A stretch of 64,000 nt of DNA, from assembly GCA_965223295.1 (NCBI GenBank), contig CBDCWC010000003.1, positions 352,001 to 416,000 of the forward strand, read 5' to 3'. Source of the DNA: Nitrospirales bacterium (GTDB lineage: Bacteria > Nitrospirota > Nitrospiria > Nitrospirales > UBA8639). The notes under the pieces are model-generated. The model did not search any database. It saw only the letters and a program-made list of their open reading frames with translations, and was not told where the DNA came from. The position numbers and the translations under genes are program-made. This document shows, one piece after another, positions 10,308-51,918 of this stretch (position 1 is its first letter; every line of letters begins with the position of its first letter).

Positions 10308-10345
10308 CGTTCTCTTAACCTATTTCTCTTGCTTAGAACTATTTT

Positions 10346-10531: not shown

Positions 10532-10561
10532 ATTATTTTCTTGAAAAATAAACGGCCCATA

Positions 10562-10603
10562 ACAAAAGAGCGTGCCGGTTATAAAACCGACACGCTCTTT
10601 TGT
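10562..10603. terminator. Intrinsic terminator, possibly bidirectional
   Basis: ACAAAAGAGCGTG-cggttataaaaccg-CACGCTCTTTTGT hairpin downstream of the 10632-11387 gene. Confidence 0.75.
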
Positions 10604-10631
10604 AAGGTCTAGCTAGAATAAAAGTTATAGC

Positions 10632-27196: not shown

Positions 27197-27412
27197 GGCA
27201 AGAGCAAAAAGACCCCACAGTTCTTAAAGACCCCTAATCCCGCCGGGTTCACAAGCTTCCCTCTAGATTCCGGTTCAAGTTGTGAGTCGACTCTCCCTCT
27301 GTGCCCCGCGCCTACCCACATATACCACAATGCCCCCCGACGGGCCCAATCCAAGAACAATGAGCCGGTCAGCCCTCACTCACAGGAGATACGCCCGCCG
27401 GTCGCACAACCA

Positions 27413-27493
27413 CATCTGGGGATGGAATCCCCGATGAAGTTTTTGGTCCTTGGCGATTCTCTCAAAAAGGCCGTCTAAAATTCCTATTCCCAA
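27413..27493 (+). repeat. Module-boundary direct repeat, copy 1
   Basis: Exact 22-mer TGGCGATTCTCTCAAAAAGGCC at 27451, 34814 and 40268, with similar flanks. Confidence 0.8.
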
Positions 27494-27908
27494 AAGGACC
27501 ACAGGACATTAGTCAGTTTGCTGGAGTTCGCATCACTGGAAATATTCCTTTTGGACCATCTTTGCTCTAGCTTCCTGTTCAATCGCTACTTAGTCTGTAT
27601 CTTTTTAGAAAAAAATTTATCTGAAATGATACAGGATGATTAGTCTTTTCCTGATTTTTACGAACGCATCCATCAAGACCCCGCCTACCTAAGATTAGTG
27701 CTCTCACTAGAAATTTCACCCCATGGACTTTAGATAGACCAAATCTAGGCGCTGATGCCTTAACGAGACTTTTTCCCTTTTGAATCTCAGCCTAGATCTT
27801 GTGATCCAACCTAGAATTTTCACCCATTCCTGATTTATATTGCAGCCTTTGGCCTAGGTGAAAGAATCCTACTCTTCTCCGCTCAGGAGTAAAAACAAGG
27901 AGGTTCCC

Positions 27909-28118
27909 ATGGCAACAGGTCCTTGTGATTTCTTCATCAATGCTGCACACCGCGGAAACCCTGCTACCGAGGTCTTCGATCTTGACGTAGATGCACTCAA
28001 AGGTGTCTCAACCGAGGACAAGCAGAACCTGAAAGACCCCTTTGGCGTGATGACTATTAACGATCTTGGCCGAAACCACTTCTCGCGCACAACCGTGCAA
28101 TCCTTGAAAATAGTGTAG
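27909..28118 (+). CDS. Small hypothetical protein
   Basis: AAGGAGG RBS then ATG; ALKGVS...LKDPFGVMTINDLGRN resembles small conserved HhH-like proteins. Confidence 0.55.
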   Translation: MATGPCDFFINAAHRGNPATEVFDLDVDALKGVSTEDKQNLKDPFGVMTINDLGRNHFSRTTVQSLKIV

Positions 28119-28569
28119 ACATCGGTCATAACCTAAGTTCTGTCGCGAGTACACCATCGATTTTTAAAAGCTCTGACCGATTGCTGGCATTCCAAGGTGA
28201 GGGCCAAAAACATTTTTGCAGGAGATTGATTGCCTCACACCAATATCTTTATCTGCCCTTCCTTGATTGTGCCCTTCACTTCAAAACCGGCTAATATTCA
28301 TTGAGTCCCATGCGCACAAAGAATGAATGCTTCGGTAAATCATCAAATACGTGCCATTTTATTTACAGAAAATAAAGCTTACATATCTAATAATATCGTG
28401 TTTGAAATAATGGCCATTGTTATATTTCAAAGAATCCGATACGGTGCACATGGACGTTCCAAGACGAGGCATTACCTTGGGCCAACACTTTCTTATTGGA
28501 TGTCTGAATAAAGAATTTTTATAGAAAGCATTATTCATTATCAAATTTCATCAAATTACGGAGGGGAAC

Positions 28570-31497
28570 ATGAGTCGTCTTTCACTTGCGTTATCAAAAA
28601 CCACTTTTCGCAGCCGAAAGAATGTTGAACGTACTCTGAAGAAGATCAATTACGATCCTGTAGAATTGGCCCCTGCTTTCCTAAATATATGTAATGAAAG
28701 TCAAGAGAATGGTGTAAAGCTAGCTGAAGCCTACGCCGTTGGACTAAAAGATTCCGAGCAGCATCGTGAAGTGTTTCAGCAGGTTTCATTAATGCCAAAA
28801 ACAGTACGCAAATCCTTCATCAAAGGGTATTGCAATGTGGGACAGGGTCGAGGCGTCGTGCATGCCATCAGTCAATTACCTCGGACACAGGGGCGCACAC
28901 TTATGGAAGATTTTGTAATAAAAGAGGACAAATCGAAGAATGAAGCTGCTATTGAGGAAGTTTTGTATTGGTTACGTGATGCGGGCAGAGAAATGCGAAG
29001 ACTTGAAGCGGACCATGCCCAATCAATACCGCTTGCCGGAAGTGATTCTGCTGTAATTGAATTCTTTGAGGATGTTGCTGATGCAATTTCTGATGCCGTA
29101 ACTGCAGTGGTTGATGCAATTGTGAGCGTTGCGGAAACGCTAGCCGAAGCAATCGTTGACGTTGTCAACTGGGTGGCTGAAGAAGTGGCCGATCTTGTTC
29201 GAGCCTTAATAGAAGCTGGCAAGACTATCTTCGATCTATTAGAAGCAGCTGTTCAGACTGGTTATCAACTTGCGAAGAAGATAATAAAGGCTTTGGAGGA
29301 CGTTGGAAAGGCAATGCGGGAGATTCTTGAATCAGCATTCAATTTAGCTAAGGATGCTCTCGTTACTGTATTGAAAGCAATTGACCAGTTGGGACGTACG
29401 TTGGGTGAACTTCTCGCGGAGCTTGCGACGAAGACATTTGATATTGTCAGAAAGGGTATCGAGGCATTGTTGGAAATTGGAAAATCAATTGGAAATATTC
29501 TGCAGCAGGCGCTGGAATTTGGTGCAACATTAATCACAAATACCGTCAGAACGCTCTTAGAAGTAGGGAAAACAGCGCTAGAAATACTGGTGGCTGCAGT
29601 CACCCGCCCTGGTCAATTATTCGATCAAGTCGTCGCGTCGCTCAAAAATCTTGGTAAAACCGTCACGGAACTTTTTGATGATGTAGTGAACGCTGGCGCT
29701 GACCTTATCCGCGAGGTTGCTGAAGCAGCAGCCAATGTAGGAACGGCCATTGCAGAGTTTACATCGTATATAGCCCAAGCCACTATTGAGGTTGCAACCA
29801 AGATTGTAGAAGGGTTACTAAAAGCAGGGAAAACACTAGTAGACATGGTAGCTTCCATCGCCCAACACGGATTTGAGGCAATAAGGAAGGTTGTTGATTC
29901 TGTCTTCAAGCTAGGAAAAAGCTTTATCGGTCTGCTTCGTGATGTGGCAAAACTTGCTTTTGATTCGCTTAAAGATGTTGTGCGTGCCGCTTTTGATCTA
30001 GGGAAGACGATAGCAGAGTTCACACTTTCGATGGTGGAATTCACCTATCGCACGGCCGCGAGGTTCATCCAAGCTGCTCTGGAGGTTGGTGCAACTGTGG
30101 CTGAAGTGCTCGAGAGCGTGGTCTCGAAGACATATTATGTGCTGCGTAAGATTGTAAATGGGGTACTGCAGGCTTTGGGGCCTGTCGGAGATATTTTTCA
30201 GTGGTTAATAGATCGTGGAGAGGAGCTAGCTTCGAAATTATGGCGTGAAACAGTTCTTGCAATCCGCTTTGTAAAGAAAAGTGTTACCGAGGTGTTGGAT
30301 TGGGCTTTTGCCAAGGGTCAAATTTTTTTAGATCGAATGATAGAAATTGTTGAAGATATCGGTGAAGCAATAATTGACATAATCGAGTGGGCGCAAGCTA
30401 CTGGTGATGCAGCTCTTGAGGCGCTAGGGGAGGCAACCGTTCGAGCGCGCAACTCGGTAAATTACGTTCTCAGCTATCTTGAAAAGGATCTTATCCCTGG
30501 TATAGCCAAGTTTGTGAAGGGTGTTCTTCAAGCCGGCTATGAAATTGGACGACTGGTTGCCTGGATGGCAAGCCGTAGCCTTCAGATCGTTACCGAGGTT
30601 GTTAAGGCGTCTCTTGAGGCGGGAGTTACCTTGGCGGTACTAATTACAGAAACAGTAGCGCATCCTGACCAAGCATTAGAGAATCTTTTGAGAGCTGCCC
30701 GCACTCTGGGGCAAACACTTGAGGATATCTATCAGGCCGTTATTGTAGAAACAGAAGAGCAATTTCTGGAACAAGTGACGCTGACCTTAAACAACCTAGA
30801 AGAGCCAGTCAGAGATATAATTGAAGCAGTTGCTGAAACAGCCACGGGAGCAATAAGTGCCACTATTAGTATTCTCCTGAACGAATTAGCTACTTATAGA
30901 CCGCTGACAGAAAATGAGAAAATGGACGCTAGAGTTGTCTATGGTGATACCATTGACCTCGAAAACACCTATATTTCTGCTGAGAGTTTAGTAAACAAAA
31001 TCATTTTCGGCATCCAAGACTGGGCCACAGGTAATCCTACCTCACGTGCATTTGTCACGAATAACCTCATTAATTTTGATGTTAATGAGGCAATTGATAT
31101 TGATGGCCAAGGCACTTTAGGAGTTAAGAGATCTACATTCATTCATGAATTGAGTCACGTATGGCAATCCGAAGTTGAAGGACCTTTTTATATGTCAGAA
31201 GCCATTCATGCACAAGCTGTAGGTGGTGGCTATAACTATGGATATAACGAATCTCTGGGGAATATCGCTGTGCCCATAGACTATATTGGAACTACAGAAA
31301 TGCTAAATAATGGTTTTTCGACAGGAGAAGGAGGCCAGGATGCACTCAATACAGCCGCTGGAGATTTCGATGAATTCAATCGTGAGCAGCAAGGGCAGAT
31401 TGCCATGCACTACTTTGTCAGGAGAGTGCTACTTAATCAAACTCCAACAGAGTATGAACCTTGGCAACCCTATGTTAATGCTATACAAGCAGCATAA
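28570..31497 (+). CDS. 975-aa protein: about 18 tandem 29-aa helical repeats plus C-terminal HExxH (DUF4157-like) metallopeptidase domain
   Basis: Repeats of type ALxxxGKTIxELL at 29-aa spacing; RPLTENEK...FIHELSHVWQ...FNREQQG. Confidence 0.75.
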   Translation: MSRLSLALSKTTFRSRKNVERTLKKINYDPVELAPAFLNICNESQENGVKLAEAYAVGLKDSEQHREVFQQVSLMPKTVRKSFIKGYCNVGQGRGVVHAISQLPRTQGRTLMEDFVIKEDKSKNEAAIEEVLYWLRDAGREMRRLEADHAQSIPLAGSDSAVIEFFEDVADAISDAVTAVVDAIVSVAETLAEAIVDVVNWVAEEVADLVRALIEAGKTIFDLLEAAVQTGYQLAKKIIKALEDVGKAMREILESAFNLAKDALVTVLKAIDQLGRTLGELLAELATKTFDIVRKGIEALLEIGKSIGNILQQALEFGATLITNTVRTLLEVGKTALEILVAAVTRPGQLFDQVVASLKNLGKTVTELFDDVVNAGADLIREVAEAAANVGTAIAEFTSYIAQATIEVATKIVEGLLKAGKTLVDMVASIAQHGFEAIRKVVDSVFKLGKSFIGLLRDVAKLAFDSLKDVVRAAFDLGKTIAEFTLSMVEFTYRTAARFIQAALEVGATVAEVLESVVSKTYYVLRKIVNGVLQALGPVGDIFQWLIDRGEELASKLWRETVLAIRFVKKSVTEVLDWAFAKGQIFLDRMIEIVEDIGEAIIDIIEWAQATGDAALEALGEATVRARNSVNYVLSYLEKDLIPGIAKFVKGVLQAGYEIGRLVAWMASRSLQIVTEVVKASLEAGVTLAVLITETVAHPDQALENLLRAARTLGQTLEDIYQAVIVETEEQFLEQVTLTLNNLEEPVRDIIEAVAETATGAISATISILLNELATYRPLTENEKMDARVVYGDTIDLENTYISAESLVNKIIFGIQDWATGNPTSRAFVTNNLINFDVNEAIDIDGQGTLGVKRSTFIHELSHVWQSEVEGPFYMSEAIHAQAVGGGYNYGYNESLGNIAVPIDYIGTTEMLNNGFSTGEGGQDALNTAAGDFDEFNREQQGQIAMHYFVRRVLLNQTPTEYEPWQPYVNAIQAA

Positions 31498-31511
31498 CAT
31501 CTTAACTCCTC

Positions 31512-32426
31512 ATGGTCATAACAATTGTCACTCCAGCTTCGGCCATAAGGCCACTGGAACCACTACTGCAAGCATACCGCCGAAAGAACTATTCCGTATG
31601 CTTTGAGATAGCAAAAGATTTCTCAATGTTGCCTCAGTTTTTACAGAGGATTACAGAAAAAACGGATGCCACATTAGTTATTGGCCCACGAAAACGATCC
31701 CCCAGGACAGCCATACGTGGGCCTGTATTAAGGTGTGGTGGGGGAAAGTTGATCCCTGTTGGATATGTTCCCGATATGGGAGGGAAAGCCCTAAATGTTT
31801 TTGCTCAAACAGCAGCCCATATTCATCAACGAGTACCCGCATTACAACCTATTGCTATTCTTTCTCAATGGAATCCGCAATATCTGAGACTCGCAACCCG
31901 AATAGAAGACCTTCTCCGAATACAAAAAAACCCTGTATTTCGTTGGACAAGTGATTTAATCCTTCGGGAAGACATGGTTCCTGGCCTAAGATCGGGGTTA
32001 GCTGCTGCTGTGTATGTTGGACATGGTCGTCCTGTTGGCTGGGTGGGATATCGGGGAACCCGCATTCATCATCTTGCAGGGAGTGTTGGGGAACCTTTAG
32101 GAGCACTCATATCTCTTTGTTGTCGTACGGCCAGTCGAAAACGTGTAGGTCTATCGTTCTCAGAAGCAGTACCGATGCAGGGTATTGCTGGTTCTGCTTT
32201 TGGCTCAGTCACAGACACGCTGCATATAAATAATACTCGCTGGGCAGTACGAATCTGTGCAGCTCTTAAACGCGGTGCAACGCATATAGGGGAATTAATA
32301 GTAAATGCACTACCTTTTGACTCAGAAGTAGTTAATGAATACCGTCTCTTAGGTGACCCTGTGGCTCCACTTTTCGGAGCTTCGCAGGCGGTTCAACGGG
32401 CGCAGACAATTAAAGTTGCTCACTAA
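31512..32426 (+). CDS. C25/gingipain-like (clan CD) cysteine peptidase
   Basis: YVGHG and SLCCRT His/Cys dyad contexts; terminal YRLLGDP as in C25 peptidases; no signal peptide. Confidence 0.65.
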   Translation: MVITIVTPASAIRPLEPLLQAYRRKNYSVCFEIAKDFSMLPQFLQRITEKTDATLVIGPRKRSPRTAIRGPVLRCGGGKLIPVGYVPDMGGKALNVFAQTAAHIHQRVPALQPIAILSQWNPQYLRLATRIEDLLRIQKNPVFRWTSDLILREDMVPGLRSGLAAAVYVGHGRPVGWVGYRGTRIHHLAGSVGEPLGALISLCCRTASRKRVGLSFSEAVPMQGIAGSAFGSVTDTLHINNTRWAVRICAALKRGATHIGELIVNALPFDSEVVNEYRLLGDPVAPLFGASQAVQRAQTIKVAH

Positions 32427-32461
32427 AATGCTGCTATGAGACAACCTGGTATGCCGACACT

Positions 32462-32725
32462 ATGAATTCTCTAAATTGTAGAGACCGTGAGGAAGTTCTT
32501 GCTCTATTGGTGCGTGAAATGAGAGAAGTGAAAAGTGAATTACCCGAAACAATCGAAATGGACATGAATTTCGTCATAGATCTTGGGCTTGATTCTATTG
32601 ATCTAGCCGAATATGTGGCCAGAATCGAACAGACTTTTGGGATACAGGTCTCAGATGATGAATGGAAGAGCCTAGCTTCTCTAAGAATTGTGGTCGAATA
32701 CGTCGAGAAACGGCTGTCTGAGTGA
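32462..32725 (+). CDS. Acyl carrier protein
   Basis: DLGLDSIDL phosphopantetheine Ser motif; acidic, 87 aa. Confidence 0.92.
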   Translation: MNSLNCRDREEVLALLVREMREVKSELPETIEMDMNFVIDLGLDSIDLAEYVARIEQTFGIQVSDDEWKSLASLRIVVEYVEKRLSE

Positions 32726-33855
32726 ATGTAGTGATTACAGGCCTGGGTGCCATAACTCCACTTGGGGACACTCCAAATGTCCTTTGGGAATCTTTGCTAG
32801 CGAAGAAATGTGCAACACGCGAATGGCCAGATTTAAAACAAGAAGGGTTTCGCAGTACTGCTGCCTGTCGAATTCAAAGTCTAGAGGAAAAAATACAAGG
32901 CCGTGGTCGGCAGATGGCCATTTTGGCAGCCATGCAAGCAATCAACCATTCAAAACTGAAGCTCCGAGAAGATGTTGGAATATTTATTGGAAGCACGATG
33001 GGTGAAAGCGAAGCATTTGAGAAAGCAGCTGAAGGGCACTCTCTGGTTCTGGAAGATGCTGTTGCCAGCGCTTTCCCAAAAGCAGTTCAGGCCGCACTAC
33101 AGATTAAAGGTCCACTCCGGGCATATGGAACAGGATGTGCCGCTGGCAATTATGCCATAGGAGCTGCAGCCGACGCAGTCAGACACGGAATGGTTAAGGC
33201 TGCAATAGCAGGTGGAGTCGAACCTTTTTCACGGATCGCAATGGTAGGCTTCAGCCGATCCCGGGCGATGTCAGACGACTTTTGCCGTCCCTTTGATCAC
33301 CAGCGTCGAGGTATGCAGTTGGGAGAGGCTGCTGCGTTTGTTGTTCTAGAGTTGGAAGACGAGGCAAGGCAACGCAATGCGCTTCCCTTAGCTACGGTCC
33401 AATCCTTGGGTCTATCATGTGATGCATACCATCCTACTGCTCCCAAACCTGATGGAGCAGGGATGGCAACAGCGATGTACCAAGCATGTCACTTGGGCGG
33501 AATAGATCCGCGAGAGGTAGATTGGATCTGCGCTCATGGGAGTGGAACCCAAACTTCTGATTCAGCAGAAGCTCGAGCGATAGAGACCGTCTTTTCTCAT
33601 AAACCCGCCGTTTCAGCTATCAAAGGTGCCCTTGGCCATTCACTTGGCGCATCGACGGCTGTGGAGACTATTGTTACTGCGCTGGCCTTGCGCTACAGAA
33701 TCCTCCCTCCAACAGTCAATCTCCAAAAGATTGATCCAGAGATGAATCTAAATATTATTCAAGAAACCTGCTTAGCTTCAGATTTGAAATGGGCACTTAA
33801 TTGCGGCTATGCCTTTGGTGGAATAAATTCTGCTCTCTTGATGGGGCAAGCATGA
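32722..33855 (+). CDS. Beta-ketoacyl-ACP synthase (FabF-like)
   Basis: VVITGLG, catalytic GCAAG, AHGSGT, KGALGHSLGA, AFGG; GTGA overlap with ACP. Confidence 0.9.
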   Translation: MNVVITGLGAITPLGDTPNVLWESLLAKKCATREWPDLKQEGFRSTAACRIQSLEEKIQGRGRQMAILAAMQAINHSKLKLREDVGIFIGSTMGESEAFEKAAEGHSLVLEDAVASAFPKAVQAALQIKGPLRAYGTGCAAGNYAIGAAADAVRHGMVKAAIAGGVEPFSRIAMVGFSRSRAMSDDFCRPFDHQRRGMQLGEAAAFVVLELEDEARQRNALPLATVQSLGLSCDAYHPTAPKPDGAGMATAMYQACHLGGIDPREVDWICAHGSGTQTSDSAEARAIETVFSHKPAVSAIKGALGHSLGASTAVETIVTALALRYRILPPTVNLQKIDPEMNLNIIQETCLASDLKWALNCGYAFGGINSALLMGQA

Positions 33856-34475
33856 TGCAAGCTTGGATTGCAAATTGGGGCAAAAATAATTGCGAAAAGA
33901 TGCATTTCCCAAAGGCAGCTGATTGGATAGTGGAACAAGTAAAACTCTTGCTACCCAAGCCCCATATCCCAACTCGAACAGGTATTTATGTTGCTACTGA
34001 AGATGTTGGCGCGGAAGCTTCCCAAGGAATGTGGGCCGAATGTTTACAACAAGGAGCTGGTTTCGCAAATCCACGAACTTTCCCTTGGACACTTTCCAGC
34101 AGCATAGCTAGTCATATAGCTATCAATTTGAATATTCAAGGAGCAAGTTACACGATCATAGGGAAAAGTCGTGTAGTAGGCGATATTCTTCAACATGCCT
34201 TGCACGATTTATCCTTCAGAGGTATAGATTGTGCATTACTTGTTGGTTTGGAAATACTTAATAGGACATGTTTCGCAGGAATTTGTTTAACACAATCAAC
34301 TACCCGTCAATCACCTTTACAATTTGAATGGCATAATGAATGTAAGAGTGCTTTTCAAGAAAACGAATCAGCTGCAGAATTATTTGCCAATATATGTTTA
34401 TCGTTAGACAAGAATTGTCCACTTCATTTTGTTAATCCAGAATTAGGATGTATCTTGATCAACCAACGCACTTAA
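33852..34475 (+). CDS. Truncated ketosynthase-like (chain-length-factor-like) protein
   Basis: NPRTFPWTLSSSIASHIAINLNIQG matches KS N-domain pattern; no catalytic Cys motif; ATGA overlap with KS. Confidence 0.6.
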   Translation: MMQAWIANWGKNNCEKMHFPKAADWIVEQVKLLLPKPHIPTRTGIYVATEDVGAEASQGMWAECLQQGAGFANPRTFPWTLSSSIASHIAINLNIQGASYTIIGKSRVVGDILQHALHDLSFRGIDCALLVGLEILNRTCFAGICLTQSTTRQSPLQFEWHNECKSAFQENESAAELFANICLSLDKNCPLHFVNPELGCILINQRT

Positions 34476-34776
34476 GCAAACTCGAATCTGGAGGAATTGG
34501 TCCGAATTTTTCTGTTCTAGACCAATGTCAATCATTCACTCGCTAGCTGAATTCTTTAAAATACGTGGAAGCCTATGATTTCAATCAAGACGCTATTCTC
34601 GCTCCGCGAATGCGGGATTAGATGAGATAGCAGGTTGGGAACCGACTCTCCCTTTTTGTCCCGTGTGCCCATCCACTCGCACACACCATCATGAAACAAG
34701 AGGCTGACCCGATCCGCGACCAAGGGGCCGGGCATACCGCCGCCGGCAAGGTCAACGCTCGCTTGTCGGACAGCAA

Positions 34777-34856
34777 CATCTGGGGATGAATCCTCAAAGA
34801 GGTCTTTGATATGTGGCGATTCTCTCAAAAAGGCCGTGTAAAATTCCTATTCCCAA
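34777..34856 (+). repeat. Module-boundary direct repeat, copy 2
   Basis: CATCTGGGGATGAATCC...TGGCGATTCTCTCAAAAAGGCCGTGTAAAATTCCTATTCCCAA. Confidence 0.8.
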
Positions 34857-34936
34857 CCCCTTTCCATTTTTTGTGGGAGAACATCGGGCTCCCCCACCAC
34901 CTTCGAAAACCACGCCAGCTCATCAAGACTAACTTT

Positions 34937-35300
34937 GGTTGTGTCGCAACAAGTGCTCGAAGACGACGCAATAGCTATTAACCATCGATGTCCCACTACA
35001 AAATGCGTAGAACGGTTCAGTGAGAGTTGGCTTCTTTGTCCCTAGTGTGTACATCTCCACATTCTTAATCATCACCATGACTTCCATTCCCGCTAATGTT
35101 CGTTGGGCTGCATAACAGTCCTCAAATCTCAACATCGTCCGAGTGAGCCGTTTTCTAGGTCAGTAGTTTTGTTCGACAATATTGTTCAGGTATTCGCATT
35201 GGGGGATTCTTATCCGGTTTTAATAGTCTCTATTAACCTGCCGAAGGCCCACATAGATTGGGCTCACATTGATCAATTTCGACCAGCCTTATGATGTCAT
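34937..35300 (-). pseudogene. IS6-family transposase remnant (3' part)
   Basis: QCEYLNNIVEQNY*...TMLRFED...RTLAGMEVM resembles IS6 KYLNNxVEQDHR region; end GGTTGTGTCGCAAC resembles IS6 IR. Confidence 0.7.
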
Positions 35301-35407
35301 TTTACTAAATCGATTTCCTAAAAAAGTGTAAGTCGGCCTTGGCATCTCTTATCGCATCATTATCGAACCCTCCACCAGACGCCCGACTTGCTACCTGAAG
35401 ATCAATT

Positions 35408-35446
35408 TGTATCTGAATAGATAAAAATTGTATCTAAAAAGATACG
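35408..35446. promoter_or_regulatory. Tandem palindromic activator sites (candidate bEBP enhancer)
   Basis: TGTATC-N6-GATAAA and TGTATC-N6-GATACG, 21 bp apart. Confidence 0.5.
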
Positions 35447-35551
35447 AATTTATGGTGCACATTTTGCTTTTCGTCTTCTTCTAGTTACCCGTGTTCCAAT
35501 ATTTTCAAGGCCATGAAACATTCTGAATACAGTTTTTCATTGTTCGCCGGC

Positions 35552-35568
35552 TTGGTATAAGTTCTGCA
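35552..35568 (+). promoter_or_regulatory. Putative sigma-54 (-24/-12) promoter
   Basis: TTGGTATAAGTTCTGCA = GG-N10-GC. Confidence 0.55.
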
Positions 35569-35741
35569 CGTTAAAAGGATCATCTGTTTCCTTCTTTATG
35601 CAAAAGAAAGAAGGGTTCGTGCAAATAGCCCGAAGTATTGTTTCTGATTTTCTAACCTAATTTCCTTTCCAAGACATAATATTTTGTAAATTTTCTCAAA
35701 AAACAATTTTTACATTACCACTTCACTAAAAGGAGGGAGTC

Positions 35742-36272
35742 ATGGACAAAGAATCACAAGAAATCCTAAAGCGAGTCGAGGAGCGATTGACGCGATTAGA
35801 GGCAAGCGCCACAGCGGGCCCAGCGGCAGGCGGATTCGGAGCACCTGGTGGTACGGTAGTTGATCCTGCCCCATGGGGGCCGGGCGGTGGGTTTGTTCCA
35901 CGATGGCCAGTTCCCAATCCAATAGCCGATCCTGCCCCTTGGTGGCCGGGTGGTGGGTTTATTCCACCGCGATGGCCAGTTCCCAATCCAGTAGCCGATC
36001 CCGCCCCATGGCCTCCTGGTGGGTTTGTCCCACGGTGGCCAGTTCCCCCTATTGTGGCTGATCCCGCACCATGGGGTGGCGGCTTTGGCGGCGGCACAAT
36101 TACTCGTCCGCCGATCGGTTCAATCGGTGATCCTCCCCCCATGGACTTGGGCCGGTTAAATCTTGCACAACTTGAATCATCCATGCATTCGATTAATGCT
36201 GAAAAAGCCCGTCTCGACTCCTTGGAGAAACTAATTAACAATCAAATCGGGAAACTCAAGAATCCAGGCTAA
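35742..36272 (+). CDS. Putative multi-core RiPP precursor (DPAPW repeats between two coiled-coil-like segments)
   Basis: AAGGAGG RBS; 4x DPAPW plus DPPPM; 3x PRWPVP; directly upstream of two radical SAM genes. Confidence 0.8.
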   Translation: MDKESQEILKRVEERLTRLEASATAGPAAGGFGAPGGTVVDPAPWGPGGGFVPRWPVPNPIADPAPWWPGGGFIPPRWPVPNPVADPAPWPPGGFVPRWPVPPIVADPAPWGGGFGGGTITRPPIGSIGDPPPMDLGRLNLAQLESSMHSINAEKARLDSLEKLINNQIGKLKNPG

Positions 36273-36449
36273 CATCCACACGGAGATTCGGCTCAGGGCT
36301 CTATCTTCTTGATAGAGCCTGATCCAACATTGCAACTGGAGAGACTCGAGTAAATCTTTCACATACGCACGCTAGAGACACATGTTCATGTGAAACCGCC
36401 GTATACTTAAGTGATTTGATGACCTGTAAGGGAAAGGGATAGGTGTGCT

Positions 36450-38129
36450 ATGCCAACTATGGCGCAAAATCATACGACTAAATCGCGAAAAGTGCTTCTC
36501 ATCGGCTTCCAGGACCAAGACAATCTCGGGTTGCGTTATCTGATGTCTAACATCAATGCTTCGCATCATCAGGCCAGCATCATGACCTACGGTTCCGACC
36601 CTGATCGGATCCTAGAACGAATCCGCCAAGATGAGCCCGATGTCGTCGGATTCTCGCTTATCTTTCAGTATATGGCGCCAGACTTTAGTCAGGTGATCAA
36701 AGCGTTGCGGGAAAAGGGCGTCACTGCACATATCACCATAGGCGGGCACTACGCCAGCTTCGAGCCCAAGGAGATTCTCCGGCAGACTCCTGAACTCAAT
36801 TCCGTGGTCCGATTCGATGGTGAGACCACCCTTGTCAAACTGTTGGATAGCTTGGCCGTTGGCACAGATTGGCGAACCCTTCCGGGGATCGCATTTCGTT
36901 CGGACAACGGCGAAATCACGACTACCCCTCTCGCTCAACCCGTTGAGGACTTGGATACCCTACCCTGGCCAGATCGACAGTCGATAAATTATGAAGGGCA
37001 TTGCATGCCCACGGCTTCAATTCTCGGAAGCCGGGGATGCCCATGGGACTGCTCGTTTTGCAGTATCCGCCCTTTTTACGAGGAACAAGGAGGGAAGCTC
37101 CGTCGTCTACGCAAACCCAGAGCTGTGGTTGACGAAATGATTGATCTCCATAAAAATCGAGGAGTCCCGATTTTCTTATTTCAGGACGATGATTTCCTCG
37201 CAGGAGGAAAGCGAGCGAAACAATGGGCAGTAGACATTGCAGACATCCTCGCAGCCGAGGGTCTAAACGGGGAGATCGCGTTCAAAATCAGTTGCCGCTC
37301 GGACGAAATCGACGAATCGATCATCGAGCAATTAATGAAAGGTGGGCTCACGCACGTGTATATGGGTGTGGAGTCGGGAGACGAACAAGGCCTCCTCAAC
37401 ATGAGCAAGCGGCTAAAACCAGAAGCGCATTTAGAAGCTGGTCGAATCCTAAAGCGTTTGGGGCTATCCTACGACTTCGGCTTCATGTTGATCGATCCCT
37501 ACACAACCTTCGACAGCATTCGCACGAACATCGATTTCTTAGAGGCCTTCATTGGGGACGGCTGGTCGGTCGCGCCATTCTGCCGGATGCTGCCCTATGC
37601 CGGAACACCAATCAAGCGTAAGCTTGAGCAAGAAGGCCGATTGACAGGTACACCATTTGAGCCGGACTACAAACTTCTCGATCCAAAGCTAGATCTGTTT
37701 TACGATTGGATGGTCGAGGCATTTTACGAACGTAATTTCACCAACCAGGGATTGTGCCACATTCTCCGTGGATTACTATTTGAGGCACACCTGCGATTGT
37801 CGACCCGGAACCGAGTGAACGACGCGCAACGCGCCTACATTCACCACCTGACAGCCGTCTGCAACCGGGTTGCATGCTACACACTTCGTTCAGCCATAGA
37901 TTATATTGAGGCCACACCTCTGTCGGAGCTTAAACAGGATCGCCACTATCTAGACGGTTTGGCCGTGCATGAGAAAGAACAGGAAATGAGGCTAAATAAC
38001 GAAGTGGCACAGTACTATGAGTGGGTCCACCAAGATTTCAGCCAGGTACCGGGCCCAGTAGGCAGCTTCGAAAACTCCTGGACGTTTCACAATAATGACC
38101 GTGAAGCGGAAGGAGTGGGAGCAGCCTAA
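36450..38129 (+). CDS. Cobalamin-dependent radical SAM enzyme
   Basis: B12-binding N-domain (NLGLRYL...VGFS...IGGHYAS), SRGCPWDCSFC, MGVESG. Confidence 0.9.
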   Translation: MPTMAQNHTTKSRKVLLIGFQDQDNLGLRYLMSNINASHHQASIMTYGSDPDRILERIRQDEPDVVGFSLIFQYMAPDFSQVIKALREKGVTAHITIGGHYASFEPKEILRQTPELNSVVRFDGETTLVKLLDSLAVGTDWRTLPGIAFRSDNGEITTTPLAQPVEDLDTLPWPDRQSINYEGHCMPTASILGSRGCPWDCSFCSIRPFYEEQGGKLRRLRKPRAVVDEMIDLHKNRGVPIFLFQDDDFLAGGKRAKQWAVDIADILAAEGLNGEIAFKISCRSDEIDESIIEQLMKGGLTHVYMGVESGDEQGLLNMSKRLKPEAHLEAGRILKRLGLSYDFGFMLIDPYTTFDSIRTNIDFLEAFIGDGWSVAPFCRMLPYAGTPIKRKLEQEGRLTGTPFEPDYKLLDPKLDLFYDWMVEAFYERNFTNQGLCHILRGLLFEAHLRLSTRNRVNDAQRAYIHHLTAVCNRVACYTLRSAIDYIEATPLSELKQDRHYLDGLAVHEKEQEMRLNNEVAQYYEWVHQDFSQVPGPVGSFENSWTFHNNDREAEGVGAA

Positions 38130-38210
38130 TGATTCACAATCGTAACCTTCACAGCCGTAACCATATCCACACCAGTAGTTGTCTCATATACTGAGAAATA
38201 CTCACTATCG

Positions 38211-40193
38211 ATGGACGTCCTTCTTGTTTCAATGCCTTTTGCTGAAGTCCAACGGCCTTCCATCGCCTTGGGCTTGCTGCAAGCAACACTGAAGGGATCA
38301 ACTATCACAAGCGAAGTGGTATACGGCAATATCAGATTTGCCGAGTCGATTGGTATAGTGGCGTACCAGGCCATGCAATCGACCCCTACTGATCATCTGC
38401 TCGGGGAATGGTGTTTCGCGGGTGAACTGTTTCGTGAATGCTGGGAACGAGACGAGGAGTACTTAGACCTTGTCCTCAATGTGCGATGCTTCGGTTTTCC
38501 GGCTGAGCTCGAACAACGAAAGGACCTGATACGCTGGGTGCGTGTCCAGAGTACCTCCTACATCGACTCTCTGGCCATGGACATCGTCGCTCGCGAACCC
38601 CGGATCGTTGGATGCAGCTCCGTGTTCCAGCAGCATTGCGCCTCCCTGGCATTACTTAAGCGAATTCGCGAATTGAGCCCAAAAACAGTCACCTTGATGG
38701 GAGGTGCCAATTGTGAAGATGAAATGGGTATCGAAACGCTGAAAATGTTCCCCTGGATAGATTGCGTTGTCTCGGGCGAAAGCGACCACATTTTCTCAGA
38801 GTTATGTCATTTCTTGCTAAATCATGGCCGTAACGTAGACCCTACCGCCCTCCCTTATGGTGCAATACTCCAATCACAGTACAAGCAAAATGGAGAATAC
38901 ACACCAAACACAGGGCCAATACCACGCCCTGTTATCAGTAATCTGGACAGCTTGCCAATACCAGACTACGAATCCTACTTCGCGACCCTCCGTGCGTCAA
39001 CGATTTCGGGAATGGTCAAGCCCGGCTTACTAGCCGAGAGCTCACGCGGTTGTTGGTGGGGTGAAAGATCCCATTGTACATTTTGTGGGTTAAACGGTAC
39101 AGGGATGGGTTTCCGCTCGAAATCACCAAAGCGAATACTCAGCGAGTTGGCCGAACTCACCAGGCGTTATGAAATACACAATGTCCAGTTCGTGGACAAC
39201 ATTCTCGATATGTCCTATCTCAAAACAGTACTGCCATCGTTGGCCGAACTAGATAACCCTTATTCGTTGTTCTACGAGACTAAAGCGAATCTTAAGAGGG
39301 ACCATGTTCAGCTTCTAGCAGACGCAGGCGTGCGATGGATTCAACCTGGCATTGAAAGTCTCAATGATGATCTCCTACGCCTCATTGGAAAAGGTAATTC
39401 TTCTGCCATGAACCTTCAACTCTTGAAGTGGTCCCGTGAGTATGGCATCGACGCATCTTGGAACATGCTTAGCGATATCCCAGGCGGATCAGATATCTGG
39501 TATAAAGAGATGGCAGAATGGTTGCCGGCAATCTTCCATCTACAACCACCAACTGGATTAATTCGAATACGATACGACCGTTTTAGTCCATACCACAAAA
39601 CTCCCCAAGCGTACGGATTGACACTCGTACCAAGTCGTGCCTATCAGTATGTCTACCCATTTCCCCCCGATACATTGATGCGACTGGCGTACTCATTCGA
39701 AAACCACAACCAGGCCGAACATATTCACCGTAGCGTACAAAACCAGCCTGGCCAACAAAAACTTCAGACTGTCATTGAAGAATGGAACGCAAATTGGAAT
39801 TCTTCTCGACCAATACTCCATGTCCATGACGAAGGCACGAAGCTTCGGGTCATTGACACACGCTCCTCTACCCGTGATACCTATTGGACCGCAGGAGAGA
39901 TGGAGGCGTCAGTGTATCGCTTGTGCGACACAGCCCAAACATCCCAAACATTGCTAAAGCAACTGTCCATGCAGTATGAAAGTGAGGTCTCATTCAACGA
40001 CATACAACCAGCAATCGACACCTTATGCAGGGCCCGAGTATTATTGCCCATCAGCGGAAAACTACTGGGTATCGGAATCAACCAACAACAGGTGAAAACG
40101 CAGCCCACATCATCGACGAGAAGTTCGGATGCGCAAACCGTGTATAACTCACAAACACAGCCATTGGTGAGAATCGAACCTGTTACTACGTAA
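38211..40193 (+). CDS. RiPP-maturation cobalamin-dependent radical SAM (TIGR03975-like C-methyltransferase)
   Basis: SMPFA..RPSIALGLL, GGANCE, SRGCWWGERSHCTFCGLNG (CX7CX2C), IQPGIES, DRFSPY. Confidence 0.88.
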   Translation: MDVLLVSMPFAEVQRPSIALGLLQATLKGSTITSEVVYGNIRFAESIGIVAYQAMQSTPTDHLLGEWCFAGELFRECWERDEEYLDLVLNVRCFGFPAELEQRKDLIRWVRVQSTSYIDSLAMDIVAREPRIVGCSSVFQQHCASLALLKRIRELSPKTVTLMGGANCEDEMGIETLKMFPWIDCVVSGESDHIFSELCHFLLNHGRNVDPTALPYGAILQSQYKQNGEYTPNTGPIPRPVISNLDSLPIPDYESYFATLRASTISGMVKPGLLAESSRGCWWGERSHCTFCGLNGTGMGFRSKSPKRILSELAELTRRYEIHNVQFVDNILDMSYLKTVLPSLAELDNPYSLFYETKANLKRDHVQLLADAGVRWIQPGIESLNDDLLRLIGKGNSSAMNLQLLKWSREYGIDASWNMLSDIPGGSDIWYKEMAEWLPAIFHLQPPTGLIRIRYDRFSPYHKTPQAYGLTLVPSRAYQYVYPFPPDTLMRLAYSFENHNQAEHIHRSVQNQPGQQKLQTVIEEWNANWNSSRPILHVHDEGTKLRVIDTRSSTRDTYWTAGEMEASVYRLCDTAQTSQTLLKQLSMQYESEVSFNDIQPAIDTLCRARVLLPISGKLLGIGINQQQVKTQPTSSTRSSDAQTVYNSQTQPLVRIEPVTT

Positions 40194-40240
40194 AGTTGAA
40201 AAACAAAGATCCCCTGGCAAGACCACGGGGAATCGCAAGT

Positions 40241-40307
40241 TGAATCCTCGATGAGGTCTTTGGTCCTTGGCGATTCTCTCAAAAAGGCCTTTTACAACTC
40301 CCATTCC
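40241..40307 (+). repeat. Module-boundary direct repeat, copy 3
   Basis: TGAATCCTCGATGAGGTCTTTGGTCCTTGGCGATTCTCTCAAAAAGGCC. Confidence 0.8.
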
Positions 40308-40529
40308 TGGATGACAAAGGCAGGAAAATCGAATGAGGAGGAAAAACATCAAGACAAAAGAGGCCGCAGACTATCGTTGGTTATCACCCACCGCTCTCAC
40401 GCTTTACTATCCCCTAAAAGAGCCGGTGAATAATTTGTGCGGATTGCCTAAAATGGTCTTCAGAAGACTATCATCAACAGGAGAGAACTGGTCAAAATTG
40501 CATCCAGTAAAGCCGCACCTATTTTGATG

Positions 40530-40633
40530 AGCGGAGCATAAGCTGAGCACGGGAAAATAGCGAGAACGCTACTGGCGGCCTTTGTAGCTTATCGAGTTAC
40601 TCGGGCGGAGTAGGCAACGGCTTTTTTCAACAT
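40530..40633 (-). repeat. Degenerate partial copy of family-B repeat
   Basis: GCGGAGC...TGAGCACGGGAAAATAGCGAGAACGCTACTGGCGGC...GGCTTTTTTCAACA. Confidence 0.5.
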
Positions 40634-43816: not shown

Positions 43817-45139
43817 TTATGAATGAAGTGAAGACATCCGTATCAGATTTTCGGAGGAACTATCCTCGGGAGACACCGCACAACCCACCCGCGGATCAAC
43901 CTCTTGATCCTCTAACGTAGCGGATAACGCCGGACCTAGTGGAAACTCTCGTTCATACACCGTAAACACATAGGGATCATCGGCGGTTAGACTATATTGA
44001 TCCTCCAGCATCTGATGTTGATCATCCGTCAAAATATGATACCGGATTCTAGCCTGTACGCTCCACCCTTTCTCACCTTTAGGCACTTTATAGGCAAAGG
44101 TATAGTCTCGACTGGCTAACGGGAGAAGACGGTTATCATACACCTCGACGATGACTGGTTGCCAGAGGATCCAACGACCCATCGTATCTGCCTGTTGATG
44201 GACGACAGTCCCCTGTGGATTACGGACCATAAATTCAACAGTAAAATGCCGATCCGGATCACCGGTCGGGATCTTATGTCCCGCACCTGCGTTGATAAGA
44301 GTCAGCGTAAAACTGACCTCTTCCCCGGGATTCGGCGCCGGAGGATCAGCCTGCACCTGAACCGCCACAGCCCGCTTGACCATGTCAGGATCGTGCCCAC
44401 CTCGCCAAAGATGCCGTCGGCCAAATCGAATAGGGCTGCCCTTAGCCACCGGACGTTTCACCTCAGGCATATGACAATTCTGACAAATCAACCCTTTCTC
44501 CTTCATAAAAAACGTCCCCTCATATTCGGAGAACGTCCCGCAAGGACCTACGGCATAAAACTGTGTCGGACCAGAAACCACGCTATGGCATCGATAACAG
44601 ACCTGTGTCGTTCGGAAAGACGGATCAAATTGCGTGGGGTGGGGAGCTGCCGAATCATCATAGGGACCCAGGATTTTCCCATCTCGAACATGACAGGCCG
44701 CACAAGTCACCCCTTCCTGTTGATATTCCGGATCGTAGCGATAGTTAGGAATTTCAAAGGCCTTTTCCACACGATCATTGGGAATATCCTGTATCAGCGT
44801 CGGCTGTTGGTTTTCCAAGGGAGTATGACAATTCAAACAGACCCAAATATTGTTATCTTTCTTCCAATAGGCCTGAAAAAATGGATCCTTATAGGCTTGG
44901 GCATGAATGCTAGACTTCCACTCCTGATAAATTTCTTCATGACATTCTCCACATTCTTCCGCTTTGAGACTTTGCAGGCCGATAGGCACCTGCTGATAGG
45001 GAATGGCATGAGCATAATCATCACGTAAGCCAAAAATCACAACGGGGCGCACTTCCGTGTAAAAATAATAGCCCCCAATTCCTACAACCAGAAAGAGGAA
45101 CAGCCACATCCTCACGCGCCAGGATCGTTTAGGCTTCAT
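43817..45139 (-). CDS. Membrane-anchored multihaem cytochrome c (5 CxxCH)
   Basis: CGECH, CLNCH, CAACH, CYRCH, CQNCH; N-terminal TM; GHKIPTG. Confidence 0.88.
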   Translation of the reverse strand: MKPKRSWRVRMWLFLFLVVGIGGYYFYTEVRPVVIFGLRDDYAHAIPYQQVPIGLQSLKAEECGECHEEIYQEWKSSIHAQAYKDPFFQAYWKKDNNIWVCLNCHTPLENQQPTLIQDIPNDRVEKAFEIPNYRYDPEYQQEGVTCAACHVRDGKILGPYDDSAAPHPTQFDPSFRTTQVCYRCHSVVSGPTQFYAVGPCGTFSEYEGTFFMKEKGLICQNCHMPEVKRPVAKGSPIRFGRRHLWRGGHDPDMVKRAVAVQVQADPPAPNPGEEVSFTLTLINAGAGHKIPTGDPDRHFTVEFMVRNPQGTVVHQQADTMGRWILWQPVIVEVYDNRLLPLASRDYTFAYKVPKGEKGWSVQARIRYHILTDDQHQMLEDQYSLTADDPYVFTVYEREFPLGPALSATLEDQEVDPRVGCAVSPEDSSSENLIRMSSLHS

Positions 45140-45144
45140 GGGCC

Positions 45145-46089
45145 TCAAATCTCAAGCAACTCCTGAATGTGCTGATCGACCGATCCGGCCAAAGCTTGTA
45201 AATGATAGCCTCCCTCTAAACAAGCCAAAAGACGTCCCCCAGAGAAATTCTTGGCAATCGAAGCCACAATCGTTGTGAGATCTTTATAGCCCTGTCTTGT
45301 CAGATTCATACTGGCAAGGGGATCATCCCGATGAGCGTCAAACCCAGCTGAAATCACCACGAATTCAGGCTGAAATGCCTCGGCCGCTGGGACCAACACG
45401 TTCTGAAACACTGCGCCATACTCCTCATTTCCCTGTCCTCCTGAGAGAGGCACATTAATGGTGAAGCCTTTGCCCTTTCCATGACCAGTTTCCTTGGCAT
45501 ACCCAGTTCCAGGATAAAAGGGAAATTGATGTGTGCTAAAAAACAAAACCGTCTCATCATTGTAGAAAGCATGTTGTGTCCCATTTCCATGATGCACATC
45601 CCAATCCACAATTAAGATGCGCTGCAGACCATGTTGTTGCTGTATATACCGGGCCGCAACCGCCACCGTGTTCAAAAAACAAAATCCCATCGCACGATCA
45701 GCCTCGGCATGATGCCCGGGCGGGCGGGCTGCACAAAACGCTTGATCAATCTCGTGGTTCATTATGGCATCAACCGCAGCCAGCGCACCGCCAGTCGCCA
45801 GATACGCCGCGTCCAAGGTGCCTGGAGACATCGTCGTGTCCGGATCTAAGGACGTATAGCCATCATGAGGAGAACGTCTTTCTAGACTATCGAGATAGGA
45901 CGGAGCATGAATGTGTTCAATCCACTGCCGTTCAGCTCGGCGAGGTGTTAGTTGATATAAACGAGACCAAGTCCCGGAGGATTGTAACTGAGCACAAATG
46001 GCGCGAAGCCGCTCGGGCGCCTCAGGATGGCCACGCCCCATTTCGTGGCCCAAATACCGAGGATCATACACAAAACCGACACGTCCCAT
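45145..46089 (-). CDS. Histone deacetylase-family amidohydrolase
   Basis: HPEAPERL, RPPGHHA, DWDVHHGNGTQ, SAGFDAH, LEGGY. Confidence 0.93.
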   Translation of the reverse strand: MGRVGFVYDPRYLGHEMGRGHPEAPERLRAICAQLQSSGTWSRLYQLTPRRAERQWIEHIHAPSYLDSLERRSPHDGYTSLDPDTTMSPGTLDAAYLATGGALAAVDAIMNHEIDQAFCAARPPGHHAEADRAMGFCFLNTVAVAARYIQQQHGLQRILIVDWDVHHGNGTQHAFYNDETVLFFSTHQFPFYPGTGYAKETGHGKGKGFTINVPLSGGQGNEEYGAVFQNVLVPAAEAFQPEFVVISAGFDAHRDDPLASMNLTRQGYKDLTTIVASIAKNFSGGRLLACLEGGYHLQALAGSVDQHIQELLEI

Positions 46090-51756: not shown

Positions 51757-51836
51757 GGTAGTGATTCCTCCATTTGGTTATAGATGCATTCAGCATAATT
51801 AATTTGGTTACCAGATAATTCATTTTAAGATTAAAG

Positions 51837-51905
51837 GGAGGCTGGGGGGAGGTGTAAGCAATGTTTCTTTCCAGACGTCAATCAAGAAAAGAACCCCCAG
51901 CCTCC
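51837..51905 (-). ncRNA. Candidate structured antisense RNA element in the nxrA-nxrB spacer
   Basis: 12-bp perfect stem whose loop is the reverse complement of GGAGGTGTAAGCA-ATGTTTCTTTCCAGACGTCAA (an nxrA-type RBS plus MFLSRRQ codons). Confidence 0.55.
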
Positions 51906-51918
51906 AAATCATGATAAT

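Follow-up and report, generated by a model that had tools for sequence, protein, structure and literature searches.

A small DPxP-repeat protein encoded beside B12-dependent radical SAM enzymes suggests an undescribed system for modifying peptides or proteins in soil bacteria

Introduction

What a small, repetitive protein does beside two cobalamin (B12)-dependent radical S-adenosylmethionine (SAM) enzymes is the question raised by a locus of a Nitrospirales bacterium (assembly GCA_965223295.1). The locus lies in a 64,000-nt stretch of contig CBDCWC010000003.1 (positions 352,001–416,000), hereafter called the window, and consists of a gene for a 176-aa protein followed by the genes for two radical SAM enzymes, rSAM1 and rSAM2. 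Among the open reading frames (ORFs) of the window, no additional genes were found between or inside the three. B12-radical SAM enzymes carry out reactions that are among the hardest in biology, and to our knowledge only a handful of them have a known substrate.

An earlier note on this DNA had proposed that the three genes encode a new system for peptides made on the ribosome and modified after translation (RiPPs) or for a modified protein. The proposal was followed up by comparing the locus across genomes and metagenomes. As judged from these sequence comparisons, the pairing of the small protein with rSAM1 in many soil bacteria suggests a system, so far undescribed, that modifies peptides or proteins. 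No description of the cassette or of the protein family was found in text searches of the literature, and the supplements of gene-cluster surveys could list the cassette uncommented. The general logic of a ribosomal substrate with B12-radical SAM enzymes is already known; new here are the family of the substrate, the subfamily of the core enzyme, the putative target motif DPxP, and the apparent use of a C-terminal helix for guidance in place of a RiPP recognition element (RRE).

Linkage of the small protein to the radical SAM enzymes

Scanning one genome per prokaryotic species with the small protein gave at least 14 confirmed loci, which is a lower bound. Six were from Pyrinomonadaceae, three from Ca. 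Angelobacter, one from Bryobacterales, two from other Acidobacteriota, one from a Clostridia-labelled metagenome-assembled genome (MAG), and one from Caulobacteraceae. In all 14 loci, rSAM1 was encoded directly downstream of the small gene (57–79% identity). A metagenome scan with rSAM1 confirmed 311 of 459 stretches carrying the pattern, and the best 80 of the 311 (71–79% identity) were kept, giving 94 loci in total. The small protein was encoded upstream of rSAM1 in 88 of the 94, in 87 by hidden Markov model (HMM) and in one (L082, clipped at the contig end) by inspection; the other six had just 76–329 nt of upstream DNA. The earlier note had named homologues of the precursor unlinked to radical SAM genes as the outcome that would speak against it, and the linkage was instead found in 14/14 and 88/94 loci. 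One hallmark of RiPP loci, a small precursor gene beside its modifying enzyme or enzymes, was thereby present at the same counts.

The presence of rSAM2 was less regular. Over the 94 loci, it was encoded downstream in 61 and absent from 18 despite at least 800 nt of downstream DNA, and the remaining 15 ran into contig ends; it was therefore missing from 18 of 79 decidable loci. Among the 14 genome loci, 12 had rSAM2, with L002, L005, and L009 broken by a contig end, and L012 and L014 were without it. In L011, from a Bryobacterales MAG, rSAM2 was reduced to its C-terminal 225 aa (10165–10842; residues 405–634 of rSAM2 in the window, 60% identity), and VVDPPPW is the one unit of its precursor. 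No member of TIGR03975, the family of rSAM2, exceeded the cut-off anywhere in the genomes of L011 and L014, and the genome behind L012 had one lower-scoring copy (514 bits) at another locus. Second copies were also present elsewhere in the genomes of L001 and L003 (544 and 538 bits), beside a cassette copy of 706 bits. Because these genomes are MAGs, the absences of rSAM2 in L011, L012, and L014 are provisional. The co-occurrence with both enzymes that the earlier note had proposed to test was thus borne out for rSAM1, which is universal and far more conserved, and did not hold for rSAM2, given its absence from 18/79 loci. rSAM1 and the small protein are an obligate pair, and rSAM2 is an optional add-on.

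All ORFs of the 14 genome loci and the window were also compared with one another. Across phyla, the small protein, rSAM1, and rSAM2 were the only families in common. Other recurrent ORF clusters were shadow ORFs within the three genes or belonged to synteny specific to Pyrinomonadaceae, where the neighbouring genes encode an extracytoplasmic function (ECF) sigma factor, an ABC-2 permease, a phosphatase-family protein, a weak S51-like ORF, and a beta-propeller protein. No protease, transporter, or cyclase was conserved over the 14 genome loci and the window, in agreement with what the earlier note had reported for the module itself, and no lipid or tetrapyrrole genes were conserved beside the cassette in this set. 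A second hallmark of RiPP loci, a leader or follower protease together with an exporter, was likewise not found there.

Family and architecture of the small protein

The small protein matched no family of Pfam or NCBIfam, and no NHLP or Nif11-type leader domain was found in it (no families in either database). When its profile was compared with the PDB, the best E value was 0.21 and no solved relative was obtained, which upholds the earlier statement that the precursor resembles no known class. In the Protein Atlas, the sole match was the cluster of the protein itself, which is named "hypothetical protein" (score 0.87, 80 members, Acidobacteriota). Homologues were nevertheless numerous, with 213 at E ≤ 0.01 among 1791 candidates. 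None of them has a name beyond "hypothetical", and the sources, given for a few, are Nitrospiraceae and Pyrinomonadaceae. A profile search of 1.84 billion cluster representatives (50% identity) returned 146 clusters at E ≤ 1e-3, of which 76 also passed E ≤ 1e-10 and 16 passed E ≤ 1e-30.

The 176-aa ORF and its strong ribosome-binding site are present as the earlier note had stated (Table 1), and the translation agrees with the architecture given there, namely an N-terminal helix, DPAPW repeats, a GDPPPM segment, and a C-terminal helix. Both helices were predicted by AlphaFold2 from a 30-sequence alignment (residues 3–24 and 141–173), with nothing confident between them and a mean pLDDT (predicted local distance difference test) of 57.3. 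On inspection of the sequence, no signal-peptide-like N-terminus was seen. The DNA of the repeat region has a 66-nt periodicity (3–4 copies, 60–87% identity), and the DPAP codons of the four units read GAT CCT GCC CCA, GAT CCT GCC CCT, GAT CCC GCC CCA, and GAT CCC GCA CCA. The units therefore differ in synonymous codons as claimed earlier, which fits selection at the protein level.

The same alignment contained 17 invariant columns. Three lie in the N-terminal helix (R15, L16, E20), three in the repeats (D41, P44, P108), and 11 in the C-terminal 47 residues (D130, P131, P133, D135, Q143, L144, H149, A153, R157, L158, E162). Homologues share the layout of an N-terminal helix, a variable number of DPxP units (1 to 6), and a C-terminal helix, with lengths of 95–230 aa. 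Among 22 divergent members that were fetched, both helices were kept and other versions of the unit occurred, such as five copies of GGGFTDPAPDDIVNLKLGELLER. The family-wide motif is therefore wider than the DPAPW of the earlier note: as read from the aligned members, it is D-P-x-P with either W/F/Y or x-D after it. DPAPW is real in the protein of the window and is one variant of this motif.

Several candidates from these searches were set aside. No significant case was found among 52 candidates for enzyme–substrate fusions or longer forms of the C-terminal region. The long profile matches P0223, P0253, P0263, and P0233 are unrelated "VVDxPAWTET"-type repeat proteins, and P0183, another long match, looks frameshifted. 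In P0223, P0263, and P0233, the VVDxxAW string is all that gives the tandem "ETVVDxPAWTET" repeats their score, and it can yield false positives in any motif search.

Precursor variants and candidate target sites

The precursors were compared according to whether rSAM2 was present. Each of the 51 distinct precursors from loci with rSAM2, that of the window among them, had exactly one DPxPxD, together with 1–6 other DP units (mode 5) of the consensus P-[VI]-V-D-P-A-P-[WFY]-P. The 17 distinct precursors from loci with rSAM1 only carried 1–4 copies of DPxPxD, with 2–4 copies in 7 of the 17. Three types were distinguished among the latter. Type A, of approximately 95 aa and seen in L012, has the N-terminal helix, one IVDPAGPW, GDPAPIDVSRF, and the C-terminal helix; type B has PIGDPAPIDYSR repeated 2–4 times in alternation with YADPGPW; and type C has IVDP-type repeats (L061–L063). 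The precursors of L014, L084, and L095 fell outside these types. In the Caulobacteraceae locus L014, where rSAM1 is 57% identical and rSAM2 is absent, the precursor lacks any DPAPW unit and retains RGDPPPIDVSRL and the C-terminal helix. Because DPxPxD and the C-terminal helix are retained across the variants, rSAM1 would appear to require both.

A possible target of rSAM2 was sought in the motif statistics. Val was found at repeat position -2 in 57% of cases with rSAM2 versus 2% without, and at position -1 in 65% versus 35%. On a FastTree phylogeny of rSAM1 (95 rows), the presence of rSAM2 needs at least five changes. Over five independent contrasts, approximately two went the same way, none the opposite way, and approximately three made no difference. 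The assignment of the rSAM2 target from these statistics is suggestive, yet not phylogenetically independent, and was not adopted.

More distant relatives of rSAM1, at E ≤ 1e-100, occurred in 8 of 301 sampled genomes of the window's phylum (G000 included). In L106, the ORF ahead of such a relative encodes 111 aa with three [VI]ADPxxP units and a C-terminal helix, and comparison with the family profile (hhalign probability 89%, E 2e-6) identifies this protein as a family member. In L103–L105 (e.g. L104, 455–1519), the preceding ORF is a 354–410-aa protein of no family with C-terminal KGDPSPEDIIRLKL and a terminal helix; if the likeness were true, the 354-aa case would place the motif on a protein-sized substrate. 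In L107–L109 (e.g. L108, 2967–3200, minus strand), a 77–103-aa ORF with INWDPVPWWF and a C-terminal helix precedes the enzyme.

Properties of rSAM1 and rSAM2

The earlier note had called both enzymes B12-dependent radical SAM proteins and had placed one of them, by its CX7CX2C signature, near TIGR03975. Domain searches bear out the class of rSAM1 and the placement of rSAM2. In rSAM1, the B12-binding (PF02310, 62.3 bits) and Radical_SAM (PF04055, 66.4 bits) domains of Pfam were both above cut-off, and the CX3CX2C motif (C197/C201/C204) was invariant in 11 of 11 sequences; with both domains and this motif, rSAM1 is a class B (cobalamin-dependent) radical SAM enzyme. Its mean column identity over the 11 sequences was 82%. 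Against NCBIfam, 22 families were matched, BchE, HpnR, ApyD, HpnJ, and PhpK among them, and none reached its cut-off; the best partial scores were 125.4 bits for BchE (cut-off 481.35), 120 for HpnR (650), and 103 for ApyD (750). By sequence, the PDB returned only generic B12-radical SAM enzymes, the closest solved ones being OxsB and AprD4. The predicted model (pLDDT 69, predicted TM score 0.71) has an all-helical segment over approximately the last 150 residues (412–526), and its fold matched OxsB (E 2.7e-17), TsrM, CysS, TokK, the methyl-coenzyme M reductase (MCR) glutamine methylase MgmA, and AprD4. The predicted complex of rSAM1 with the 176-aa protein (score 0.00, mark 0.32) was made without controls and was weighed neither for nor against an interaction.

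rSAM2 matched TIGR03975 (rSAM_ocin_1) almost from end to end, with residues 3–621 on model positions 1–604 of 606 and 697.6 bits against a cut-off of 281.85. The NCBI name of this family is "RiPP maturation radical SAM C-methyltransferase". The CX7CX2C [4Fe-4S] motif (C281/C289/C292) was invariant in 8 of 8 aligned orthologues. The Pfam B12-binding domain scored 19.1 bits against a cut-off of 32.1, and its region was still aligned within the full-length TIGR03975 match. By sequence, no PDB match was obtained.

The C-methylation precedent invoked in the earlier note is documented for PoyC and MpcB, both peptide C-beta-methyltransferases. In PoyC, the cluster motif takes the unusual form Cx7Cx2C, and the enzyme C-beta-methylates polytheonamide at Ile and Val (PMC11285071). 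MpcB, together with MpcC, places up to eight beta-methylations on a Val/Ile/Thr/Pro-rich peptide having a leader and a follower, according to the portion of text at hand (PMC10849626). The RRE in the enzymes for which the earlier note had suggested a search did not appear: no RRE or PqqD-like domain was detected in rSAM1 or rSAM2 with Pfam and NCBIfam (E ≤ 0.01), although such HMMs miss some RREs.

Layout of the locus and genomic setting

The features of the locus are listed in Table 1. An antisense ORF (35726–36241, minus strand) is a shadow of the repeat region. The stem-loop in the spacer between the small gene and rSAM1 was not called by a terminator scan because a T run is absent, and a conserved attenuator hairpin at this place was rejected, as the median z over 88 loci was -0.23 and 22% of them were below -2. 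No Rfam match above chance and no tRNA was found near the cassette, whether riboswitch or other RNA, and counts of promoter and terminator consensus sequences at the cassette did not exceed those of shuffles. Of the sequencing runs listed for the stretch, four are of DNA type, all from one study, and none is of RNA type.

Table 1. Positions in the window of the cassette genes, their parts, and the flanking repeated elements
Feature	Position	Strand	Basis or remark
Ribosome-binding site AGGAGG	35731–35736	+	5 nt ahead of ATG, read from sequence
Candidate substrate protein ("precursor"), 176 aa, unnamed family	35742–36272	+	ORF listing
N-terminal amphipathic helix, residues 3–24, EERLTRLEA core	35748–35813	+	AlphaFold2
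Four [VI]xDPAPW repeats with Gly/Pro/Trp-rich spacers, residues 39–111	35856–36074	+	Translation
IGDPPPMD, the DPxPxD motif, most conserved part of the family	36123–36146	+	Invariant D130, P131, P133, D135
C-terminal amphipathic helix, residues 141–173, QLE..LHSINAE.ARLDSLE, heptad-like	36162–36260	+	AlphaFold2, pLDDT of up to 86 in the block
Stem-loop in the 177-nt spacer between small gene and rSAM1	36290–36325	+	Minimum free energy -28.2 kcal/mol, z = -3.66 vs shuffles
rSAM1, 559 aa, B12-binding radical SAM enzyme	36450–38129	+	Pfam domains
rSAM2, 660 aa, TIGR03975 B12-radical SAM enzyme	38211–40193	+	NCBIfam full-length match
Repeated element of ~100 nt, copy left of cassette	34755–34856		Repeat comparison
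Repeated element of ~100 nt, copy right of cassette	40241–40307		84% identity over 67 nt

The cassette is single-copy in this genome. rSAM1 was found in none of the three same-genus and none of the 24 same-family genomes searched, and the nearest rSAM1 (79% identity) belongs to a Bryobacterales MAG. A 13.4-kb stretch (~27200–40630, i.e. ~27.2–40.6 kb) has no counterpart at the syntenic site in any of the three congeners, and synteny with them picks up again only at 40633. This stretch is a strain-specific island carrying two unrelated-looking modules. The G+C content is mildly raised over the cassette (0.49–0.51 versus 0.44–0.46 alongside). In the simplest reading, the cassette was probably acquired horizontally in this genome.

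The other module of the island (28570–34475, plus strand) encodes a 975-aa helical-repeat protein with weak phasin-like matches and a C-terminal HExxH (FIHELSHVWQ), an acyl carrier protein (ACP), a below-cut-off FabF-like ketosynthase (KS), and a 224-aa ORF of no family. A 304-aa C25-peptidase-like ORF (31512–32426; 21.8 bits against a cut-off of 23) lies 3.3 kb upstream of the cassette. This ACP/KS/C25-like/975-aa module was considered as a part of the system and rejected, as it stands beside the cassette in 0 of 14 genome loci. Transposase remnants suspected at 34556–35294 had no Pfam support.

Copies of the ~100-nt intergenic element flank the two gene modules (28570–34475 and 35742–40193). 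A third copy in the window lies at 27391–27493 and further G000 copies at C3:1184553–1184652 and C3:1185938–1186035; the conserved core is GCGATTCTCTCAAAAAGGCC, and many copies occur in one same-genus genome. The element matched no Rfam family and may be a miniature inverted-repeat transposable element (MITE), a repetitive extragenic palindromic (REP)-like element, or regulatory. A second short repeat, at ~40494–40583, was found in dozens of copies in every one of the three searched genomes of the genus. Farther downstream, the product of 43817–45148 (minus strand), 443 aa long, has several CxxCH motifs for haem binding and, at the N-terminus, a segment resembling a membrane anchor. At 50467–55356 (minus strand), two subunits of 1145 and 429 aa of a type II molybdoenzyme of the dimethyl sulfoxide (DMSO)-reductase family are encoded, under all equivalog cut-offs, with sizes that we take to resemble those of the periplasmic nitrite oxidoreductase NxrA/NxrB; a sigma-54 activator (48553–50109) adjoins these genes.

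Proposed mechanism and alternative explanations

In the mechanism that we propose, the three genes would be a self-contained cassette in which the 176-aa protein serves as the ribosomal substrate of both B12-radical SAM enzymes. rSAM1 would be the core enzyme; it would recognise the C-terminal "follower" helix and modify Asp-Pro-x-Pro, at the invariant DPxPxD and probably at the DPAPW repeats as well. As the repeats vary from 1 to 6 while rSAM1 stays 71–79% identical, they behave like serial substrate sites rather than like a folded partner. The likeliest reaction of rSAM1 would be radical C-methylation of an unactivated carbon. Since B12-radical SAM enzymes also catalyse the making of C–S and C–P bonds, the contraction of rings, and cyclisation, as listed in the available text of 10.1101/2023.10.30.564719, methylation is the likeliest but not the sole possibility. 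rSAM2 would carry out additional C-methylations within the repeats, in the manner of PoyC and MpcB on peptides rich in Val/Ile/Pro. The product would stay a large polypeptide, in which a modified Pro/Trp-rich segment lies between two amphipathic helices, rather than yield small excised peptides. Because no protease, exporter, or signal peptide is linked to the cassette and the terminal helices are better conserved than the repeats, the product is most likely uncleaved. We infer the chemistry, the target residues, and the non-cleavage of the product from these comparisons, and a substrate-plus-enzyme cassette with an uncleaved or large product is the explanation we consider probable.

Several observations weigh against this explanation. 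Methylation is drawn from family names and relatives, in enzymes of a class whose versatility (cyclisation, ring contraction, C–P and C–S bonds) was noted above, and rSAM1 falls below every curated cut-off. No RRE or PqqD-like domain through which the substrate could be recognised was detected in either enzyme with Pfam and NCBIfam. The link between rSAM2 and Val depends on five contrasts (sign test, p 0.5), and the rSAM2-less loci L061–L063 still bear IVDP-type repeats. The ORFs of L103–L105 and L107–L109 were not significant against the family profile (E 0.058 and 0.047) and are alike at the motif level only. Genes for a protease or exporter may exist unlinked to the cassette. A classical RiPP is favoured by the repetition of identical units, by the name of the family to which rSAM2 belongs, and by the sporadic, island-borne distribution.

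Such a classical multi-core RiPP, with the N-terminal helix as leader, the C-terminal helix as follower, and the units excised by an unlinked protease or at acid-labile Asp-Pro bonds and exported as bioactive peptides, is in our view a rather unlikely competitor. Near-identical units with a conserved motif in each would suit it, as would the patchy, island-borne distribution typical of secondary metabolism and the membership of rSAM2 in TIGR03975, a family named for RiPP maturation; by way of precedent, each repeat of TvgA is modified by a radical SAM enzyme (PMC9062424) and MpcA has a leader and a follower (PMC10849626). However, the 14 genome loci and the window have no conserved protease or transporter, the ABC-2 permease and the weak S51-like ORF near the cassette being confined to Pyrinomonadaceae. 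Moreover, unit borders have no conserved cleavage motif, spacer lengths vary, the terminal helices are best conserved even in very divergent members, and the minimal forms of ~95 aa hold one or two motifs only. It is clearly less probable that the small protein is a coiled-coil adaptor, scaffold, or regulator for an rSAM1 that acts on a small molecule (hopanoid, other lipid, or tetrapyrrole). This reading draws on the NCBIfam families to which rSAM1 has its best partial matches, BchE and HpnR (a hopanoid methylase), on its closest solved relatives, OxsB and AprD4, which act on small molecules, and on a conservation (82%) unusually high for a RiPP enzyme. The BchE and HpnR scores are, however, far under cut-off (125 vs 481; 120 vs 650), a central region predicted to be disordered and carrying 1–6 motif copies would be odd in a fixed adaptor, the second cassette enzyme comes from a peptide-modifying family, and lipid or tetrapyrrole genes are not conserved alongside. 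An artefact, in which a chance ORF covers a DNA repeat or the genes are neighbours by chance, could draw on the tandem repeat region with its equally long antisense ORF. Hundreds of protein homologues with conserved non-repeat ends and the synonymous codon differences among the units speak against it, and it is refuted by the linkage counts (14/14 and 88/94), so that we give it practically no weight.

A bolder form of the substrate-plus-enzyme explanation goes further. Here, rSAM1 would found a new, strongly conserved B12-radical SAM subfamily that carries out an undescribed modification of DPxP, directed by the follower helix, maybe on whole proteins, and with a chemistry that is not necessarily methylation. 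We hold this form only tentatively and as the less likely outcome. If true, it would be a dedicated system for the post-translational modification of a protein rather than a route to a natural product, and would build a modified polyproline/tryptophan stretch flanked by two coiled-coil helices.

Comparison with known systems and significance

Among known systems, the polytheonamide-type (proteusin) pathway resembles the cassette as proposed here, in that two B12-radical SAM C-methyltransferases, PoyB and PoyC, act on one ribosomal precursor (PMC11285071). PoyC (PMC11285071) and rSAM2 have the CX7CX2C motif in common, and rSAM2 scores as TIGR03975. Unlike in polytheonamide, the precursor of the cassette has no NHLP/Nif11 leader, the cassette has no epimerase, dehydratase, or protease, and its core enzyme, rSAM1, is a distinct, uncurated B12-radical SAM enzyme with the standard CX3CX2C. 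The mpc cluster for clavusporin from Streptomyces also has a CX7CX2C B12-radical SAM enzyme (MpcB), and its precursor MpcA is hydrophobic, rich in Val/Ile/Thr/Pro, and equipped with a leader and a follower, as stated in the available text (PMC10849626). The role of clavusporin is physiological (surfactant) rather than antibiotic, by the same text (PMC10849626). This cluster has the partner MpcC, the leader peptidase MpcP, and the transporter MpcT, for which the cassette has no conserved counterparts when compared by the description in that text (PMC10849626). It differs further in that the cassette has a substrate of 95–230 aa with DPxP repeats and a second, different B12-radical SAM enzyme.

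The poly-cyclopropylglycine system TvgA/TvgB is like the cassette in having a precursor of short repeats; in that system, a radical SAM enzyme modifies each of them (PMC9062424). As described there, however, TvgB is a multi-cluster (SPASM-type) radical SAM enzyme and not B12-dependent, its motif is TVGG, and its reaction is Val cyclopropanation (PMC9062424). Closer in enzyme class is ApyD of the aminopyruvatide pathway, a B12-radical SAM enzyme whose C-beta-methylation in a RiPP gives beta-methyltyrosine next to Asp, as reported in the available part of 10.1101/2023.10.30.564719. ApyD is the third-best partial family match of rSAM1, its 103 bits lying far under the cut-off of 750. It contains an RRE, by the same account (10.1101/2023.10.30.564719), whereas none was detected in rSAM1. 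In the text available, ApyD was assayed by co-expression in E. coli with a btu uptake plasmid (10.1101/2023.10.30.564719).

The cassette couples a defined, easily expressed substrate with an uncurated, unusually conserved B12-radical SAM enzyme. The pair recurs in at least 311 metagenome stretches, in Acidobacteriota, in a Caulobacteraceae MAG, and in the window's own phylum. With two or three genes, it would be a clean system in which to study new enzyme chemistry on Asp-Pro-x-Pro motifs, and it could reveal how an enzyme that has no recognisable RRE reads its substrate by a C-terminal helix. Should the product stay uncleaved, radical SAM "RiPP" chemistry would extend to protein-sized substrates in abundant soil bacteria.

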